In this document: piece after piece, positions 9,744 to 61,362 of the stretch | Layout of the letters: each line of letters opens with the position of its first letter | Numbering within the stretch: the stretch's first letter is position 1 | Origin: Nitrosopumilus sp. | GTDB taxonomy: Archaea > Thermoproteota > Nitrososphaeria > Nitrososphaerales > Nitrosopumilaceae | Length of the DNA stretch: 64,000 bases | Reading direction: 5' to 3' | Assembly (NCBI GenBank): GCA_965219345.1 | Contig: OZ244732.1 | Span: 1,216,001-1,280,000 of the forward strand | The notes under the pieces: generated by a model | Told to the model about the DNA's origin: nothing | Databases searched by the model: none | Seen by the model: the letters and a program-made list of their open reading frames with translations, nothing else | Made by a program: the position numbers and the translations under genes

Positions 9744-11129
9744 CTATCTACTACGGCCGCCGTAGCTATTTTTACCGCCTCCATCACTGTATCTTCTTCT
9801 ACCGCCTCCATCACTGTATCTTCTTCTACCGCCTCCATCACTGTATCTTCTTCTACCGCCTCTATCATCTCTTGAATCCCCACTGTTTGATCTTCCATAT
9901 CTTCCAGAACGCCCTCCTCTGGAATAGTTAGATCTTGATTGACCTCCATATCTTCTTGATGGCATTTGTCTTTTTAGAGGATCTGGAATTGAAATTTGAA
10001 TTCCCATTGCTTCATTCAAATCTTTGATAGGAACTTTGATTTGACGTTTGATAAGATTCCAATCCCCAACAGATGAATATGAAACAAATGTTATTGCTTT
10101 ACCTTCTGCACCTGCTCTAGCTGTTCTTCCAATTCTGTGAAAATATGTCAGTTCTTGATTTGGAACATCATAATTGATTACTAGTTCTACTCTTGGAACA
10201 TCTATGCCTCTTGAGGCTACATCTGTTGCTACAAGAATGTCAGCTTTCCCACTTCGGAATTTTCCCATTGCTTGCTCTCTCCTGTGTTGTGACATGTCTC
10301 CTTCTATTGCTACTGCATTGAACTTTTCTTGATGAAGGAATTTTGCAACATCTCTAGTTCTATATTTTGTTGAGCAAAATACAATAGCTTGATGTTTTAC
10401 CGGCTTGATGAAATCAATTAGATACTTGAACTTGTCTCTGTCTTTAATCACTAAAAATGATTGATCTATTCCTTCCCCACTAAGATCATCCGCATCCAAT
10501 AGAAACTGTTTTGGATTATTCAGATATTCTTCAGAGAGTCTTAGAATCTCCGTTGGCATTGTTGCTGAATACAATGACATTACTCTCTCTTCTGGTGCCA
10601 GATCTAAAATAAATTGGATATCATCAATGAATCCCATATCTAACATTGTATCTGCTTCATCAAGAACAATATGGGTGACATCTCTTAGTTCTATTGTACC
10701 TCTTTTGAGATGATCTATCAGTCTACCTGGTGTTGCTACGACAATTTCTACTCCCCTGTCAAGAGCGTCCAATTGGATTCCCATTCCTTGTCCTCCATAA
10801 ACCGTCGCCACTCTGATTTTGGTATATTTTCCAAATTTCTTTATTTCATCAGTAATCTGTATTGCCAGCTCTCTTGTTGGAGCCATGATCAATCCTTGAA
10901 TTCCATTTTTTGGTTTGATATCTTGTAACATTGCTAATGCAAAAGCAGCAGTCTTACCAGAACCTGTATGGGCTTGTCCTACAACATCCCTTCCTGTAAG
11001 TAATACTGGAATTGCTGCTTCTTGTATTGGAAATGCTTCTTCATACCCAAGATCGGTAATTCCTTTCAGTATCTCTTCTTTTAATCCTAATTCTTGAAAT
11101 TTTGTCATTTTGTTTTTTCTCTTAAGCAA
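9744..11129 (-). CDS. DEAD-box RNA helicase
   Basis: AHTGSGKT, PTRELA, DEAD, SAT, HRIGRTAR; RG-rich tail. Confidence 0.95.
   Translation of the reverse strand: MLKRKNKMTKFQELGLKEEILKGITDLGYEEAFPIQEAAIPVLLTGRDVVGQAHTGSGKTAAFALAMLQDIKPKNGIQGLIMAPTRELAIQITDEIKKFGKYTKIRVATVYGGQGMGIQLDALDRGVEIVVATPGRLIDHLKRGTIELRDVTHIVLDEADTMLDMGFIDDIQFILDLAPEERVMSLYSATMPTEILRLSEEYLNNPKQFLLDADDLSGEGIDQSFLVIKDRDKFKYLIDFIKPVKHQAIVFCSTKYRTRDVAKFLHQEKFNAVAIEGDMSQHRREQAMGKFRSGKADILVATDVASRGIDVPRVELVINYDVPNQELTYFHRIGRTARAGAEGKAITFVSYSSVGDWNLIKRQIKVPIKDLNEAMGIQISIPDPLKRQMPSRRYGGQSRSNYSRGGRSGRYGRSNSGDSRDDRGGRRRYSDGGGRRRYSDGGGRRRYSDGGGKNSYGGRSR
9774..9862. repeat. 27-bp coding tandem repeat (GGRRRYSDG, about 3 copies)
   Basis: TACCGCCTCCATCACTGTATCTTCTTC units in the helicase tail. 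Confidence 0.9.
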
Positions 11130-11210: not shown

Positions 11211-12047
11211 TTACAAACCTAATTGAGAATCAATAACTTTTTTGAAACTTTCAAATGGCTGGGCTCCCTTTAACTCAACATATCCTATTTGATCATTACC
11301 TACAAAGAATCCCGGTGTTCCTGAAACTCCATAGTCTCTTCCATCATCAAGATCTTTTCTAATTTCTTCAATATACTTTCCATTAGTAAGACATGAATCA
11401 AAAACTTCTCGTTCTAGCTGCATCTCTTCAGCATATTGACTAAACAATGATAATGCAACAGCAGTTTCTTGACTGTTCCATTCATTTTGTTTTTCAAATA
11501 GTACGTCATGCATCTCTTTGAATTTGCCTTGTTCATTTGCACATTCTGATGCAATAGACGCAGGTACTGCATTTGGATGAATACTTTGAATTGGGAAATC
11601 TCTGAAAACCAAGTTGACTTTTCCTTGGTCTATGTATTCCTCGTAAATTAGTGGAAGTGTTTGAGTGTAGAATCTTGCACAAAATGGACATTGAAAGTCT
11701 GAAAACTCAATTATTGTGATTGGTGCGTCTATGTTTCCAATAATTGGGTCATTATCTACTGAAATTTTCATTGGAAGTTTTGGTTGTTCTGCGGGTAATT
11801 GATTTTGTAGTATTTTGAGTTCTAATTTGGCTATTGCCTCTTCCAGATCTTCCTCTGAAATCTGATTTGAGCTTTGATTTGATATGTATGATCCTGCAAA
11901 AAACGCTGCAATTCCTATCACTATAATTAATCCTATAATTAATCCGTTAAATGTTGATTTTTTTACAGATATCTTCCCAGAATCATTTTGATTTAACTCA
12001 AAATCATCAGAATCATTTTGATTTAACTCAAAATCATCAGAACTCAT
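11211..12047 (-). CDS. Membrane-anchored DsbA/thioredoxin-fold protein
   Basis: FSDFQCPFC, GTPGF; 30-bp in-frame duplication at N-terminus (SDDFELNQND x2). Confidence 0.9.
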   Translation of the reverse strand: MSSDDFELNQNDSDDFELNQNDSGKISVKKSTFNGLIIGLIIVIGIAAFFAGSYISNQSSNQISEEDLEEAIAKLELKILQNQLPAEQPKLPMKISVDNDPIIGNIDAPITIIEFSDFQCPFCARFYTQTLPLIYEEYIDQGKVNLVFRDFPIQSIHPNAVPASIASECANEQGKFKEMHDVLFEKQNEWNSQETAVALSLFSQYAEEMQLEREVFDSCLTNGKYIEEIRKDLDDGRDYGVSGTPGFFVGNDQIGYVELKGAQPFESFKKVIDSQLGL

Positions 12048-12173
12048 TTAAATTCATTCCAAAGCCTAGCATACTTAATCGTATTGGCAAACCTAACAAT
12101 ATATGTCAAGTATAATTTTTGAAAACAAAGTAATTTCCTATGACTGAAAAAATTACTCCCAAATCTAGTTTGA

Positions 12174-31778: not shown

Positions 31779-32420
31779 TTGGCAAAAATTGTAGTAATTG
31801 TTGGTTCCGTAAGATCTGAAAGACATGGAATTAAAGTTGCAAAATGGGTAGTTGGCAAACTAAAAGATAGAGGACACCAAGTTTCACTGGTAGATCCTGT
31901 GGAATTGGACTTGCTATTATTAGACAAAATGTACAAAGAGATGGACTCTCCTCCTGAAAAATTAAAGAACCTTCAAAAAATCACCAAAGAAGCTGATGGA
32001 TACATTCCAATAACCCCCGAATACAATCACAGTATTTCATCTGCAATGAAAAACACATTGGATTATTTCTTGGAAGAATATTTCTTCAAACCTTCAGCTA
32101 TCATCTCTTATTCTGTTGGCCCTTTTGGAGGTATTATTGCTGGAACTCATCTTTGACAGATATTGGCAGGGATGGGCTGGAAAACATGTGGTTTAGCGTA
32201 GGTACCAACAACTGGAACTCATCTTCGACAGATATTGGCAGAGATGGGAGCCTCTGTCATTCCATCACAACTCCCAATCTCTAAAGTTCATGAAACATTT
32301 GATGATGATGGCAATCTACTTGATGAAAACTATGAGCGAAGATTTTCAAGGTTTCTAGATGAGTTTGAATGGTATGTGTCAGCTCTGGCAAAACAAAGAG
32401 AATCTGGGACACCTTATTGA
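31779..32420 (+). pseudogene. NAD(P)H-dependent FMN reductase interrupted by 72-bp duplication+insert
   Basis: GSVR, TPEYNHS, KNTLD, YSVGPFGG; removing 32140-32211 restores ..AGTHLRQILAEMG.. Confidence 0.9.
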
Positions 32421-33189: not shown

Positions 33190-33510
33190 TTGCTAAGTGA
33201 AGAGGATCTAATTGCCCGAATTCTAAAAGTTAAAGATCTTAAAGAAAATTGCTTCAAATATCTTGAAGAAAGCTCAAAAGAATTAGGAGTCCCTGTTCCA
33301 ATTGGAGTTGATGCTGGAGGAGATGGCTTGATTCTAAATATTATCTCTGAATGGGAGCCTAGCAAAGTATATTGTGTAAAGTGTAACAGTCTCAAAGGTG
33401 TTAATGTAATGCCAAAGCAGTATTTTGTAACATGTCCTAGTTGCAGGTTTATCTTAGATCAAAAAGAGATAAAGAATAAATGTCCTCATTGTAGTTTTGA
33501 ATTAGTGTAA
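33190..33510 (+). CDS. Small Zn-ribbon protein
   Basis: Three CxxC pairs (CVKC, CPSC, CPHC). Confidence 0.65.
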   Translation: MLSEEDLIARILKVKDLKENCFKYLEESSKELGVPVPIGVDAGGDGLILNIISEWEPSKVYCVKCNSLKGVNVMPKQYFVTCPSCRFILDQKEIKNKCPHCSFELV

Positions 33511-33527
33511 TCCACTTGTTATCACCT

Positions 33528-34961
33528 TCAACTTTCACACCTGGCAGTCGTAGTTATGGTCTGTCTCAGCTGACCTGTAAAGTCTTGACTGATGTCACTA
33601 ATTTGAACTTGCAGATAGCCGGTAGCAAAATGTTGAACTGGAATACCGCTTACAAAATGAGCGTCAGTTGCAGACAGTACGAATCTATTCGCGTATGGAA
33701 CGTTCAAACTCTCAAACTCTGCTTGACCAGGGTTGAACGGGGTTATGGTTACCGACTCTCTATCCCCCTCGCTAGTAGAACCGTACCTTGTCTGCCCCAC
33801 ACCCATGATTGACTCATCACGACTGTTCATCCAGTCAGTTGCAGATATGTCCACATCAATCCACGCAGTGCCAGTATTACTAATTTGAAGTGGCTTTGCA
33901 ACCGAAGTATCGCCATATGCCAGAATGCCAAAGTCCAGATCACCTGATATTATGTCAGCTGAGCATACAGGAGCATCAGTAGCGCCAGAGGCATCCAGCG
34001 TGACGTCAATTGTTTTTGATGCAATCTCGTTTAGGGACCCTACGATAGTGCCGTTTGCAGCAACGGTACCGTAAGGCAGACTGGCAGTCGCATTGTATGA
34101 AAAAGAGTCATTACTAAACACGCCTCTGATGACATAATATTTGGTACCATTTTCCAAGGTTACGGGAGTTATGACTGATCCGTCATCTGTCGTCTCAGGA
34201 AGGTCAAGTCCGACTATTGCATTACTTACAGGGAGATCAAAGGAGGGAAATGGAACCGCGAAGTCGAAGAAGCCATCACCGGGAGGTTGCAAACCAATCA
34301 GGTCATCATCACGGTCAAGCACGACTACGCCGGAACTGTTGGAGGACTTTGTAAAGTCATCCCTGAACGTTACGGATGGCTTTTCACCTACCGTAATCTC
34401 CACGGGTATGGTCTTGGTTGCCCCGGTAGTAGTACAGGTCGCATTCCCGGCATTACCGGTATAGGTGAACTCTTTTATGACAATGTCAAACGTATCGATG
34501 CCCGTATATGTAGCACCGGGGATGTAGTCAAATTCGGCAAGCATTGTGGGGTCGTGGCCAAAGTCATCCGTAGCACAGGTTATGGCAGGTACCTGATTGC
34601 CAAGATCATGATAGTCGTATGGTAATATGGGATCTCCGGATGCCACAAGGCTGCCGCCCTCTTCAGTGGTCAGGGGGTCGGGAAACACGGCAATCCAGGG
34701 ATTGTCACTGCCGGGTTGTCTAAGGTTGATGGCATTATGATATGTGGGATGAACACGATCCTCTGTTACCAGGGACAGATCATGGGCAATCGTACCATAT
34801 CCGACATCGTATCTCAGTGTTGGAAGAATCTCCACGTCAGCATCATTGACTGACTGGCCATACGCATGGCCTGCAGTCACTGCTACTGCTACTACTACCA
34901 CTGTTATCGCTGCAGCCATCAGGATCGCCGCAACAATGCCGTCCCTCTTCTTTAGTGTCAC
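33528..34961 (-). CDS. Secreted beta-rich (Ig-like) surface protein, GC-richer than host
   Basis: Signal peptide; YTGIDTF and LDFG..SNTG Ig-like motifs. Confidence 0.7.
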   Translation of the reverse strand: MTLKKRDGIVAAILMAAAITVVVVAVAVTAGHAYGQSVNDADVEILPTLRYDVGYGTIAHDLSLVTEDRVHPTYHNAINLRQPGSDNPWIAVFPDPLTTEEGGSLVASGDPILPYDYHDLGNQVPAITCATDDFGHDPTMLAEFDYIPGATYTGIDTFDIVIKEFTYTGNAGNATCTTTGATKTIPVEITVGEKPSVTFRDDFTKSSNSSGVVVLDRDDDLIGLQPPGDGFFDFAVPFPSFDLPVSNAIVGLDLPETTDDGSVITPVTLENGTKYYVIRGVFSNDSFSYNATASLPYGTVAANGTIVGSLNEIASKTIDVTLDASGATDAPVCSADIISGDLDFGILAYGDTSVAKPLQISNTGTAWIDVDISATDWMNSRDESIMGVGQTRYGSTSEGDRESVTITPFNPGQAEFESLNVPYANRFVLSATDAHFVSGIPVQHFATGYLQVQISDISQDFTGQLRQTITTTARCES

Positions 34962-34972
34962 TGACTGTATAC

Positions 34973-34987
34973 GGGGGGGGGGGGGGG
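34973..34987. promoter_or_regulatory. G15/C15 tract between TATA-like box and start codon
   Basis: Minus strand TTATTTA-C15-GTATACAGTCA-GTG. Confidence 0.7.
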
Positions 34988-35009
34988 TAAATAACCATAT
35001 CGATCAAGG

Positions 35010-35208
35010 GGAACTGGTAACTTAACGGGAGTTAATTCTTGATGGCAAGTTTCGGGAGCTGGTGTTCTGTATTATTGTATTCCACTTGTTATCCTATCAT
35101 CCTCATTACCGCAATTTGCAGTCCACGATTCTGTATTATTGTATTCCACTTGTTATCCCCCATCATGCGGATTCCTGCCCTGTCTGCCGGTGTGTCTCCA
35201 TCAAGACC
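35010..35208 (-). mobile_element. Relic end of an IS6-like element (transposase tail + TIR-like end)
   Basis: Encodes GLDGDTPADRAGIRMMGDNKWNTIIQN; GGAACTGGTAACTTAACGG matches 13/19 of element-2 TIR. Confidence 0.75.
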
Positions 35209-35440
35209 GTACTAGTAGACATGACGGGTTCATTATTTGATCTATCTTGGGAAAAAGGAGAGACACTATATTGAACACTGTCTTAGCTCTCGAAAGCCTA
35301 TATGATAAAGTCTCTTTTGTGACTCATCATTCCTATGATAAAGGCCGTGAACATCTCAATGACCTTGAGATTGAACACCTAATCAAAATGACAAATGATG
35401 TCGTCATGAAAATCAAACAGCAAACAAAGTAGATGTCAAT

Positions 35441-43615: not shown

Positions 43616-44485
43616 ATGGTAAGTATAGTAAAAGAAAGAGGGTTTTACTATCTAAAACATCACATACAGGCAAAAGAAAAGAGAAAGTATTTGGGCAAGG
43701 CAATCCCAAAAAACATAGAATCTCTCAAAAAGGAGTTTCTAAAACAATTTTACTGTGAGGACTGGGATGAAAGGATACAGTCAATTGGCAAAAAATACCA
43801 AAAAGAGCTAAAAAAAATACCAAAGTCAATTCAACTGAAAAATTTTGAGAGTTTTGGAATTGCATTTACTTACAATACCCAGAAAATTGAAGGTTCCAGC
43901 CTCACAAAAATAGATACCAAAGACCTGCTTGTATTTGGAGTGACTCCCGCAAAGAAATCACAGATTGATACCATAGAGACAAAAAAGCACTATGAATTAT
44001 TCATGAAACTAGTAACATCAAAAAAAATACCAAAGCTTACAAAAAAAACGATACTTCAATGGCACAGGGAGATTTTTGATCAAACAAAAATAGGAGAGGC
44101 AGGAAGCATCAGATCATACGGGGTGGAAGTCACCACTAATGAGAAAATAGACTTTACTCCAGTTGCAGAAATTCCAAAAAAATTAACAGAATTTTTTGAC
44201 TGGCTTTACAAATATGATGGAGAGAAAAATACTGCAGAGTTTGCATGTATGGCACACTACAAGTTTGTATCAATACACCCGTTTGGAGATGGAAATGGCA
44301 GAATTTCACGACTCATCATGAACTATATTTTGCTGAAATACAATTATCCATTATTGATGATAAAAAGTACAGACCGAAGGCCTTATTTCAAGTCATTAGA
44401 GAAATCTCAATTAAACCATGATGAGATTCATTTTCTGAAGTGGTTTATGAAGTATTACATCAAAGAAAATAAGCAATATTTGTAA
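43616..44485 (+). CDS. Fic-domain protein (class II-like)
   Basis: HPFGDGNGRISR, TQKIEG; start MVSIVK as in its paralogue. Confidence 0.92.
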   Translation: MVSIVKERGFYYLKHHIQAKEKRKYLGKAIPKNIESLKKEFLKQFYCEDWDERIQSIGKKYQKELKKIPKSIQLKNFESFGIAFTYNTQKIEGSSLTKIDTKDLLVFGVTPAKKSQIDTIETKKHYELFMKLVTSKKIPKLTKKTILQWHREIFDQTKIGEAGSIRSYGVEVTTNEKIDFTPVAEIPKKLTEFFDWLYKYDGEKNTAEFACMAHYKFVSIHPFGDGNGRISRLIMNYILLKYNYPLLMIKSTDRRPYFKSLEKSQLNHDEIHFLKWFMKYYIKENKQYL

Positions 44486-44717
44486 GAACCCTTTTGTGAA
44501 TTATATCATATTCAAAAAAAAAAAAAAATAATTCATTACTAATTCTTTAGACATTCTAAAATCCACGCTCTTATGCAAATTAGTATCTGTAATGCATGAT
44601 ACTAGACTCTTATATTCTCAAAGATGAACTTGGAAAACTATACTGACGAGCAAAAGTTCATGAGATCAAACATGTTAGACGGCAACACATTTTGATCACG
44701 TCCCACTACGCATTACA

Positions 44718-45344
44718 ATGCCCGCAGTAAAATCCGAAGACCTGAAGAAGGCGTACAAGAAGGAAAGGGATCCCAGGGTCAAGATCAGGATGGCCGCAGT
44801 AAACATGGTGTGCATGAACAATGAGAGCATCCAGCATGCGGCAGACTCGCTCATGCAGTGTCCCAACTGGGTCTCCTTCTGGGTGGAACGCTTCCGGGAG
44901 GGCGGCATCGACACCCTCCGGGATCTTCCCAAGAGCGGCAGGCCACCGAAGGTCAGGCCCGAAGACATTGAAGAGACAATGTCCGGGGCAGGCAGCATCA
45001 TTACTCCCCCGCAGCTGAGGGAACGTGTCCGCAAGATGCACGGCATAACATACCACATTACAAGCGCCAGAGGATAATGCGCAGGCTGGGCATGTCTGCC
45101 AAGACGGCAAGACAGGTCCACAAAACAGGGCAGGGACAGACGAAATCAGAAGGTGGCAGCACAACGCAAAGAGGCGCGCATATCGCGCCTGGAATCGAGG
45201 GGTTTTGTCGTCGTAGTCTTTGACGAGTCCATATTCATAGACGACCCGGCATCGGGAACAAAGTACTGGTCCCCGAAGGCCAGCCCATAGTCACCACATA
45301 CAAGGGCAGACACGGCAGGGTCGTGGCGTACGGTTCCATCGCGA
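44718..45344 (+). pseudogene. IS630-family transposase, frameshifted and truncated, conspicuously GC-rich
   Basis: WVERFREGG..LRDLPKSGRPPK HTH; later VVFDESIF; cut by IS5. Confidence 0.8.
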
Positions 45345-46358
45345 CTTGCTTTGTTTCCCAACACCAACTAATCATTAACACCATCTAACCATTTGAAACA
45401 ATTTTGATTTTTCTACTGTATTACAATCATCTTGTTGTACAGACAGACCTTCATTTTCAACTCATGAATCATGTTTTCTCTCCTGTGCGATGTGACATGC
45501 TCTCCAAACATTCTTTTGAATGCAGAAAACACTCCTTCTACGATCCACCTATCGCCATAGCTTACGCTGTTCTTCCACAAATCATAATTGAAAATTTGGG
45601 CCAGTACTGCCTTTCTTCTTGGATAGCAATCAGTAGTAACTGATGAGTTCTTTCTTGTCTTGATTCCTGGAATTATGTTACCATGGTACAAATATGAAAA
45701 ATTATCTTTTGTGTCATATGCACCATCAGCTAGTGTCTTAGTCACATTTCCAAATTGCTTTGACTGCTCAACTAGTGATACAAAAGATTTGGAATCATGG
45801 GAATGATCATCTGTAATTTCCAAACCTGTAATCTGTTTTGATTTTACATCTGCTGCCACATGAATCTTGAGAAATCCTCTTCTTTTCTGCCATTTCTGTC
45901 TCATCCACTCACCCCTGTCTGCAACCTTGATTCCTGAACTATCTATTGCAATGACAATGTCTTTTCCCAGCTTTGGGCTCATCTTGATGTCAAGCTTGTT
46001 TACTCTTTTCCAGATGGCAGAATATGTTGGTGTTTCTGTCTTGGATTTGAGATGTGATTTTATCAGACCTTCAGTTTGTCTATATGGAAGATGCAGATAT
46101 GCATGGCAGTATCCCAGTGCTTCCATGAATGATTCAGGATAAACATACTGGTGTCCTTCTTTTCCACGGTTCATTTCTTTGAGTTCTTTTGTCCATGAGT
46201 CTATTGCGTCAAAAGACAGCATGATTTCACCTCTTCTTACTAGTGTTTGGTTGTATTTTTTCCAGTTTCTACTCATGGAATGATACAAAATGTTCTGATC
46301 CAAACCTTGAGTGATGAAATTAATCAGATAAACTAGTCAGGTTAGGAAACACAGCAAG
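45345..46358 (-). mobile_element. IS5-family (IS903-like) element
   Basis: Imperfect TIR CTTGCT(T/G)TGTTTCC(C/T)AAC; exact ends uncertain by a few nt; no TSD. Confidence 0.8.
45413..46303 (-). CDS. IS5-family transposase
   Basis: NWKKYNQTLVRRG, IDSSG, KIHVA, ADGAYD, Y..RWIVE..F. Confidence 0.92.
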   Translation of the reverse strand: MDQNILYHSMSRNWKKYNQTLVRRGEIMLSFDAIDSWTKELKEMNRGKEGHQYVYPESFMEALGYCHAYLHLPYRQTEGLIKSHLKSKTETPTYSAIWKRVNKLDIKMSPKLGKDIVIAIDSSGIKVADRGEWMRQKWQKRRGFLKIHVAADVKSKQITGLEITDDHSHDSKSFVSLVEQSKQFGNVTKTLADGAYDTKDNFSYLYHGNIIPGIKTRKNSSVTTDCYPRRKAVLAQIFNYDLWKNSVSYGDRWIVEGVFSAFKRMFGEHVTSHRRENMIHELKMKVCLYNKMIVIQ

Positions 46359-49297: not shown

Positions 49298-49351
49298 GAT
49301 GATATGAAACAGACGAGATTTATAGAGTTATTGTATTATCTAAAATTTTAG

Positions 49352-50108
49352 TCAGATCTCCATTACTGTCACTGTATCGTTTTGATGTATGGCATAATGG
49401 TGTAATGCGGTATCAAGACAGATGTGGTATTTGTTTTGCTGGACATAGAGCATAGCAAATCTTACGAGAGTAACAGGTATCAAGACAGATGTGGTATTTG
49501 TTTTGCCGTACCTCTGGTGCTCTGGTATGGCCAAATATCTGCCTGATTGCTGGAATGTCTGTAAACTCGTCATAGTCACACCATACGATTCCGCCGTTTT
49601 TGTGCGGACCACCGCGCGATATTCCGACCTGAAAGAATTTTTGCAGACGATTCACATCATCAATATGTCTTAGACCCTCAACTGACTGTGCCATGAACTC
49701 TTTCAGACTCGTAGTTCCATATTCCTCAAAGAACTGCCTGCTTACTCCTGCATGGGTACAAAGATAGCTGCCAACATAGCAGTACGAAGTCATTTTCGTC
49801 CATGGTATGTCATACGAACCTATGATGTATCTTTTGAACTCGAAGAATCCAGAGCAGCGAAATGCAGGATTGCCAGTCATGTAGTGCAGATCATGGTTTC
49901 CAACCAAGTGAACTCTGTCTTGCTGTTCTAGTGATGTGACAAGCCATCTTGCAGTATTGTGAGTGTCCAAGGCCGTCTCGTAGAACGCATCAAAGTAATC
50001 TCCCAGAAATACAGTCTTGTCCAGGGATTCCCTTTCTATGATGGACTCTGCAGTCTGGAATTTTGTGTGGATGTCAGGTATTATGAGGGTTTTAGCGTCG
50101 TGTGCCAT
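49352..50108 (-). pseudogene. Calcineurin-like metallophosphoesterase, C-terminus frameshifted by 67-bp duplication+insert
   Basis: PDIH, LGDYFD, GNHD, THAG, FGHT; removing one repeat plus the insert gives CLDTALHHYA..MEI*. Confidence 0.85.
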
Positions 50109-60544: not shown

Positions 60545-60628
60545 ATCACCCCGTTGTTGCCAACAGTAGGCAACAACAGGGCAATAAATCACCCTGTTGT
60601 TGCCAACAGTAGGCAACAACAGGGCAAT
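60545..60628. repeat. Two tandem 41-bp palindromic units (period 43)
   Basis: CCCTGTTGTTGCC-AACAGTA-GGCAACAACAGGG core; one mismatch between copies. Confidence 0.95.
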
Positions 60629-61362
60629 CAGTGGTCCTGAATTTTCTCTGGGGATCCGGAAAATGTGGAATTGTCTGCTTGATTCAAAGTCGTACCTGCA
60701 TAATCTAGCAGCTCAAAGGTAAACATTACCGGCGGATCATCTGTGTTCCAAAACGGATTATATGCAATTGCAGTGATTGGAAATGCAACGTCTTGCGATA
60801 TCATAAATGTGCTTTGCTCAAAGATGCCGTACTGTATTGCAGATACGTCAAGTGTGTTGCCGTTTTGCAGCTCGATGTTGTCCTCAAAGCTTACCACAAG
60901 CTTGTCTCCGCTATACAGGGACGATGAGACATCTCCCCAGACGGCTCCAATCTTTAGATGCTTTGGGGAATGCGGAGATGCAAACTGTGCAAGATAAAAG
61001 ATCGTCTCTTCAATGGAACGTGCGACATCTCTTCCTGCAAACGTGTGAACCTTCATCGTATCTGAATCCAACAAAAATATGTAGTGTGCAACTGCATTGT
61101 CAACCGTGACTTCTGCTTGAACTATCCAATAGCTTCTGTTTTCAGAAAATAATTCTGCATAAAAATCCATTCTTATCTGGTAGCACTCATGCACTACTGA
61201 TTGTGAGTCGCACACATGATACGTAAAAAAATCTCCCGGTATGATTGACTTTCCTGCATGCCACATATCTGCTAAATAATATGCAACAATGTCGTCTGCA
61301 TCATATGCAAAGGCAGGTGTTACACATGCAATCAATACAGGTATCGCATAAACGTATCTCAT
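60628..61362 (-). CDS. Exported hypothetical protein
   Basis: Signal peptide; 244-aa ORF. Confidence 0.7.
   Translation of the reverse strand: MRYVYAIPVLIACVTPAFAYDADDIVAYYLADMWHAGKSIIPGDFFTYHVCDSQSVVHECYQIRMDFYAELFSENRSYWIVQAEVTVDNAVAHYIFLLDSDTMKVHTFAGRDVARSIEETIFYLAQFASPHSPKHLKIGAVWGDVSSSLYSGDKLVVSFEDNIELQNGNTLDVSAIQYGIFEQSTFMISQDVAFPITAIAYNPFWNTDDPPVMFTFELLDYAGTTLNQADNSTFSGSPEKIQDH

Follow-up and report, generated by a model that had tools for sequence, protein, structure and literature searches.

The stretch analysed here is a 64,000-nucleotide window (C1:1216001-1280000; contig OZ244732.1 of assembly GCA_965219345.1) of the two-contig, 1.91-Mb genome of a Nitrosopumilus species, and our subject is an interrupted metallophosphoesterase gene within it. 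The interruption, which we call lesion C, consists of a 31-bp direct repeat, GGTATCAAGACAGATGTGGTATTTGTTTTGC, whose exact copies occupy 49409..49439 and 49476..49506, and of a unique 36-bp spacer-like insert between them (49440..49475; TGGACA...TAACA). The duplication is exactly 31 bp, with mismatched bases outside both copies, or 30 bp if one border base matches by chance. The affected open reading frame, on the minus strand at 49413..50108, encodes 231 amino acids and matches the Pfam family Metallophos (PF00149, calcineurin-like phosphoesterase) with an E value of 9.8e-08 and 33.1 bits, against a cut-off of 21.5. Lesion C adds 67 bp (67 mod 3 = 1) and shifts this frame. The intact homologue in L008 is a protein of 229 amino acids ending in ...ICLDTTLHHYAIHQNDTVTVMEI; in the window protein its last 18 residues are swapped for 20 out-of-frame residues, and the original 3' end of the gene, the 18 codons ALHHYAIHQNDTVTVMEI and a stop, lies displaced at 49352..49408 on the same strand. 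To judge from the protein sequence, the catalytic motifs appear to lie upstream of the lesion, so that only the C-terminal tail would have been replaced.

Homologues were found by scanning one genome of each species with the protein as guide. Two of them, in the Nitrosopumilaceae assemblies L008 and L009, share 96% and 73% amino acid identity, respectively, with the window protein. On alignment, the DNA of both has a single 31-bp copy and no insert, followed by the sequence that stands after the second copy in the window. Lesion C is thus an insertion accompanied by a target-site duplication (TSD). The original prediction, made from the window's sequence, had proposed both the duplication with its insert and the frameshifted C-terminus, and the exact repeat, the Pfam match and the empty homologues bear out both. 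The metallophosphoesterase stretch has a GC content of 0.40-0.43, against 0.36 for the genome, and a DNA search of 40 relatives found the gene in none of them, which together place it in a strain-variable island.

The insert has neither a hairpin (minimum free energy, MFE, -0.8) nor terminal inverted repeats. It is unique in the genome and is flanked by a TSD of 31 bp, features that set it apart from transposons, casposons and miniature inverted-repeat transposable elements. Nor is the locus a genuine CRISPR array, for the ‘repeat’ is present in two copies only and is coding sequence that is single-copy in the homologues.

An assembly or sequencing artefact is scarcely credible. Public reads from four runs of one study were available as contigs, which cannot show rare variants. 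These contigs break at the 31-bp repeat, ending at 49299 and resuming at 49477, and no listed contig piece bridges the insert; k-mer contigs, of course, are expected to break at an exact 31-bp repeat. No listed joint skips the 67 bp, and molecules without the insert are neither shown nor excluded by these contigs. Against an artefact, all 30 depth bins are covered in all four runs, similar scars occur in four other independent assemblies, and the exact copies of distant loci with a precise 36-bp TSD that are described below correspond to no pattern of error.

A population of scars in two size classes

Lesion C is one of about 35 repeat-filler-repeat scars in this genome, which fall into two size classes separated by a gap. 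The whole genome was scanned for direct duplications that are isolated and non-tandem, at a spacing of 60-80 bp; 41 candidates were returned, of which 35 were kept. The other six (C1:185773, 1483340, 1779671, 1824847, 1826944 and 1868726) were dropped by hand, having been judged protein-internal or multi-copy-family repeats; among them, 1483340 and 1826944 (unit 65 bp, same filler, inverted paralogues) and 1824847 (unit 68 bp) are possible scars of the shorter class. The 36-bp class has 29 members; their units span 70-76 bp, and most of their duplications 36-38 bp. The 30-bp class has six, including lesion C; the duplicated stretch is 27-32 bp long, and the units measure 64, 65, 66, 66, 66 and 67 bp. 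When isolated non-tandem duplications of at least 24 bp were collected from C1 over the wider range of spacings from 30 to 199 bp, 36 of the 57 found lay at 63-77 bp, a clustering that argues against chance as the origin of lesion C. The other 21 were scattered over spacings, most at multiples of 3, like protein repeats.

Once the inserted unit is removed in silico, 23 of the 35 lesions lie inside open frames of at least 100 codons. Unit length shows no in-frame bias (13/11/11 of the 35 lesions by length modulo 3), and GC content near the lesions averages 0.398, compared with 0.36 for the genome. Most of the scars break genes, and they are found preferentially in DNA that is island-like or multi-copy, the pattern expected if selection purges them elsewhere. 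By a hand count of TSD mismatches, 4 in ~182 bp for the 30-bp class and ~14 in ~1044 bp for the 36-bp class, the two classes cannot be distinguished in age.

Empty sites are not confined to lesion C, being found internally, in paralogues within the same genome, for at least eight other lesions. One repeated sequence has been hit twice independently, at C1:404166 and C1:1448839, with TSDs of 36 bp and 31 bp, different fillers and left borders only 2 bp apart; the sequence is also present in a third copy that is intact (C1:332945-333180). This repeated sequence contains the palindrome CACAGACTGTG and may be an integration hot spot. Separately, two paralogous gene copies, at C1:37490 and C1:243305, bear the same scar, with an identical filler and a near-identical target, and two further paralogues of that gene, at C1:237k and C1:968k, are empty, a pattern that points to copying of the scar by gene duplication or conversion after insertion.

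The fillers themselves are informative about their origin. All are mutually different, one paralogous duplicate having been set aside, which leaves 28 in the 36-bp class. Seven of these reproduce distant loci of the same chromosome over their full length (six exactly, and the one at 1638625 at 34 of 35 positions), and one more is a partial copy. Eight of 28 fillers are therefore self-derived, compared with none of the 163 spacers of the resident CRISPR array (Fisher p 8e-08), which, searched against the genome outside the array, gave nothing beyond chance matches of 18-19 nt. Where the source defines the ends of the filler, five of six cases have a TSD of 36 bp and the remaining one a TSD of 37 bp, with spacer lengths ranging between 35 and 39 nt: the scars of the 36-bp class combine a fixed ruler with a variable cargo. 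Furthermore, the fillers have the GC content of array spacers (0.422 and 0.420, with 0.36 for the genome) and do not fold into hairpins (MFE -2.0, where random 37-mers give -1.6; p 0.22). The TSDs fold with an energy equal to that of random sequence and so lack a repeat hairpin.

Of the features of the targets, only the identity of the border bases is enriched. A G at the 5' border or a C at the 3' border was found at 6 of 12 borders in the 30-bp class (p 0.012) and at 17 of 56 in the 36-bp class (p 0.017), where a proportion of 0.18 is expected. The target of lesion C itself reads G...C across its 31 bp.

CRISPR systems of the lineage and the candidate integrases

The genome carries a complete type I-G system, consisting of a Cas4g/Cas1g fusion, Cas2, a leader and an array, then Csb2, Cas7g, Cas8g1 and Cas3g. 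The array holds 164 repeats of 36 nt and 163 spacers of 35-53 nt (mode 36-38), giving units of at least 71 bp (mode 72-74) that match the 36-bp class of scars. A second system survives as a relic at C1:1123013-1123344 (L005:7014-7345), ~93 kb upstream of the window start. It comprises a 77-residue C-terminal fragment of Cas1, 29% identical to the resident Cas1, and directly after this a repeat of ~30 nt, a spacer of ~38 nt and a second repeat that is degenerate, with a unit of 68 bp; it adjoins genes for type I restriction-modification specificity (S) subunits. Full-length relatives of the relic Cas1 are present in 11 of 120 other genomes of the genus. In one congener, G017, the locus of this Cas1 types as I-B (Cas4, Cas1b TIGR03641, Cas2 and Cas6), and the arrays of G017 and a second congener, G009, have a 30-nt repeat near-identical to that of the relic; their spacers measure 34-42 nt (mode 36-37) and their units 64-72 bp (mode 66-67).

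Lesion C, at 31 + 36 = 67 bp, falls on the mode of these I-B units. Its TSD of 31 bp is near the 30-nt I-B repeat and unlike the 36-nt repeat of the resident array, and its 36-bp insert lies within the spacer range of both. Taking the true stagger to be 30 bp, the fillers of all six members of the shorter class measure 34-37 nt.

We then asked how scars are distributed among congeners, which were chosen for their Cas1 content after 88 other genomes of the genus, each at least 95% complete, had been searched with a Cas1 profile, and which were scanned in the same way over one contiguous 400-kb sample each (about one fifth of the genome). G009, with the I-G fusion and an I-B-like Cas1, has 11 scars at 70-77 bp; G055, with I-G only, has two, as does G093, with an I-B-like Cas1 only; and none of the three has any at 63-69 bp. 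G017, with I-B only, has one of each, that at 70-77 bp being atypical, with a poly-G filler, and that at 63-69 bp (29 + 39) having a duplication that begins like the I-B repeat. Neither size was found in G018 or G002, which gave no Cas1 hit. The scars are thus common to several species and go with CRISPR adaptation genes generally, and with those of type I-G in particular. Both scars of G093 (C1:541166 and C1:732792; L057 and L066) have a 37-bp duplication and a 72-bp unit, and could be traces left by an I-G system since lost. G017 also has two paralogous units (C1:1221667 and C1:1318834; L136 and L140), at spacings of 76 and 81 bp, whose poly-G-rich fillers are unlike those of the other scars.

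Taken together, these observations make it very probable that lesion C arose when Cas1-Cas2 integrated a spacer off target and the scar became fixed. The connection with CRISPR that the original prediction had suspected is upheld by the empty site, the scar sizes, the self-derived fillers and the distribution among congeners; the argument from the end of the target, on which it had leaned, is not significant for the class. On the minus strand, the 30-mer of the lesion C target ends in CTTGATAC, where the I-B repeat ends in ATTGAAAC. Six of the last seven bases match, so that the proposed likeness of ..CTTGATAC(C) to the ..TTGAAAC end of many CRISPR repeats does apply to this one, anecdotal, case. 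The same target does not resemble the resident I-G repeat. In the 36-bp class, the ends of the targets score z 2.37 against the I-G repeat and z 3.57 against the non-cognate I-B repeat, with p 0.49 over the full length against I-G. Since the 36-bp class scores higher on the non-cognate repeat and the 30-bp class scores below random, similarity between target and repeat was discarded as evidence.

A process unrelated to CRISPR, whether a replication or repair accident leaving a templated filler and a duplication, a small mobile element or a casposase-like integrase, appears improbable. It would sit well with the fact that source, protospacer-adjacent motif (PAM) and repeat resemblance could not be shown for lesion C. 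Several congeners, moreover, have casposase-like Cas1 genes of about 410-420 residues, and several have multiple Cas1 homologues in frames of about 410-450 residues (for example three each in G110 and G048 and two in G101), which are taken to be casposases. The PAM of type I-G is TTN; the flanks of the self-derived sources have no consistent PAM, and TT stands at -3 and -2 in only two of seven. Nevertheless, such a process would have to produce two size classes that equal the two CRISPR unit sizes of the lineage, a TSD that stays constant at repeat length while the spacer length varies, and fillers that are all different, form no hairpins and have the GC content of true spacers. It would also leave unexplained why two Cas1-free genomes have no scars in 800 kb. 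Casposons, for their part, are kilobase-sized elements with TSDs of ~14-15 bp.

The integrase of lesion C may have come from a lost I-B system or from the resident I-G. Our preferred reading, to which we give a probability of roughly 55%, is a full-site, off-target integration by the Cas1-Cas2 of a type I-B-like system that this lineage has since lost. The stagger of 30-31 bp, the relic and the match in unit size make this the simplest account. As the I-B system is intact in congeners and only a decayed relic is left here, lesion C would then be the molecular fossil that a lost CRISPR system left behind.

The alternative, which we regard as doubtful, is that the resident type I-G Cas4/1-Cas2 carried out the same reaction and that its ruler slipped, placing the second strand transfer ~30-31 bp away instead of 36. 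This module is intact and, with 29 scars of the 36-bp class to its account, evidently error-prone, and one paralogous target (C1:404166 and C1:1448839) has received both a 36-bp and a 31-bp TSD from left borders 2 bp apart. Type I-G integration in vitro, as reported in PMC10504553, takes place at the correct site in 60-70% of cases on the spacer side, compared with 80-90% on the leader side. The near-absence of 30-bp-class scars from I-B-bearing congeners also fits a slip of the I-G ruler. Conversely, a slipping ruler does not readily account for a bimodal distribution of units (64-67 and 70-76 bp) with a gap between, or for a short class of exactly the I-B unit size. Three of the six fillers in that class are 34 nt long, whereas the 163 I-G spacers are never shorter than 35 nt. 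Furthermore, the samples of G009, G055 and G093 yielded 15 scars of the 36-bp class and none of the 30-bp class, where ~3 would be expected if the 6:29 ratio seen here were intrinsic to I-G.

Several results weigh against the preferred reading. The I-B adaptation module of this genome is a relic only, a Cas1 fragment and two decayed repeats, with no intact copy. As a class, the 30-bp targets are unlike the I-B repeat (z -0.68 in the ends test, below random; p 0.22 when slid over the full length), and one lesion of this class has a TSD of 27 bp. Scars of the 30-bp class number one in 1.2 Mb of samples from I-B-bearing congeners, against ~3.9 expected at the density of this genome, so the short class does not clearly track I-B; and the presence of two 36-bp-class scars in the I-B-only G093 means that scars and present-day systems do not correspond one to one. 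The lack of scars in the two Cas1-free genomes is a comparison unmatched in composition, their GC content being 0.52-0.535 and that of this genome 0.36. As for cargo, none of the six 30-bp-class fillers has a self match. The insert of lesion C has no match in its own genome by blastn-short, and so does not derive from a nearby template, a possibility raised in the original prediction. It is absent, at up to three mismatches, from 150 other genomes of the genus, and scans of two large collections for exact matches only found neither the 36-mer in viral_contigs nor its 26-mer core in metagenome_contigs.

On the preferred reading, off-target integration by a lost I-B-like system, an integrase carrying a prespacer of 36-37 nt would have attacked both strands of a site with G and C at its borders, in two transesterifications staggered by 30-31 bp. 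Repair of the resulting gaps would then have duplicated the 31-bp target on either side of the insert. The likeliest enzyme would be a Cas1-Cas2 like that of type I-B, whose ruler is a repeat of 30 nt; such a system is intact in congeners and a decayed relic here.

Sister lesions and other repeats in the window

The window contains two further scars, one of each size class. Lesion B (35065..35158), which belongs to the size class of lesion C, is an exact 30-bp duplication with a 34-bp insert and a unit of 64 bp. It adjoins a multi-copy element at 33400-35300, where contig depth in the public runs rises up to ~20-fold. In two runs, X2 and X3, a low-depth contig links position 35093, the end of the first copy of lesion B, via 22 other letters to 44638. 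Another multi-copy element of high depth lies at 44180-45450, with paralogues at C1:466.8k, 749.6k, 1335.2k and 1846.7k. The paralogue at C1:1335276 holds a scar of the 36-bp class, the filler of which is seen between joined pieces in run X1.

Lesion A (32140..32248) belongs to the 36-bp class. A duplication of ~37 bp, with two mismatches between its copies, surrounds ~35 bp, making a unit of 72 bp, in a gene for an NADPH-dependent FMN reductase (PF03358). Copy 1 departs from copy 2 in a C-to-T change from CGA to TGA, a nonsense codon gained after insertion, which makes lesion A older than lesion C. Additionally, the window has tandem repeats of other kinds: a 43-bp unit with a long palindrome at 60545-60630, a 27-bp repeat of coding type at 9762-9867 and a 30-bp repeat at 11978-12049.

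Proposed off-target integration in nature, and known systems

Off-target spacer integration is in itself a known reaction that is rarely documented in nature. The literature that we found on it consists of in vitro work, ectopic acquisition within arrays, and reviews; provisionally, as most subscription journals lay outside the search, it describes no case in which chromosomal scars are fixed by the dozen, and no case from ammonia-oxidising archaea. The reaction is established in engineered E. coli and in vitro, and the present scars bear on its rate and cost in nature. What makes them interesting is their scale, their two rulers, the self-derived nature of their cargo and the possibility that lesion C preserves the trace of a lost system.

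Reading all of the evidence jointly, we lean slightly towards the view that a genome of the Nitrosopumilus type holds dozens of fixed off-target integrations, that these form an archive of captures that has not been through selection, and that lesion C is a datable I-B fossil within it. If so, CRISPR adaptation would be a measurable natural source of gene-breaking insertions, and scars a routine origin of pseudogenes in abundant marine ammonia oxidisers. The scars would make up a natural catalogue in which tens of events are accompanied by empty sites, and some of them also by a self source that can be identified. Of the pieces captured, at least 29% would be self DNA, compared with 0% in the functional array, which would show directly how autoimmune spacers are purged; the 8 of 28 against 0 of 163 would quantify how far the adaptation module of type I-G samples self DNA and how far selection removes the result. 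It is tempting to speculate that scars outlive the systems that made them, and hence that scar dimensions might reveal CRISPR systems since lost by a lineage.

Compared with the I-G (36-nt repeat) and I-B (30-nt repeat) arrays of the lineage, the scars are alike in the lengths of unit and spacer. Lesion C differs from them in having two ‘repeats’ only, which are metallophosphoesterase coding sequence without a repeat hairpin, and in having neither a leader nor an adjacent cas gene. Ectopic acquisition in Streptococcus thermophilus, as set out in PMC7999890, resembles lesion C in that a spacer is inserted away from the leader-proximal repeat, but there the events use genuine repeats within the array, whereas lesion C uses DNA that is not a repeat.

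A further parallel is found in Pyrococcus furiosus, whose Cas1-Cas2, according to PMC6698737, integrates in vitro at non-CRISPR sites with G and/or C 30-31 bp apart and needs no leader. The enrichment of G and C at the borders of our scars agrees with that rule, and lesion C, as G...C over 31 bp, shares both the stagger and the borders of the plasmid integrations described there. That work, however, was done in vitro on plasmids, and its preferred sites have several internal positions in common with the repeat, whereas the present targets show no significant internal resemblance.

A precedent in living cells is the ‘neo-CRISPR’ units formed by off-target integration in E. coli cells that over-produce Cas1-Cas2 (Nivala, Shipman and Church 2018, Nat Microbiol; cited in bioRxiv 10.1101/148544; PMC7054753). 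The account in bioRxiv 10.1101/148544 describes the natural evidence for off-target integration, from two other species, as circumstantial. The scars reported here share with neo-CRISPR units, as those sources present them, a spacer-sized insert outside the array and a target duplication of repeat length. They differ in being fixed in the genomes of wild organisms, in numbering dozens, in forming two size classes, in occurring in several species and in never having grown beyond one spacer.

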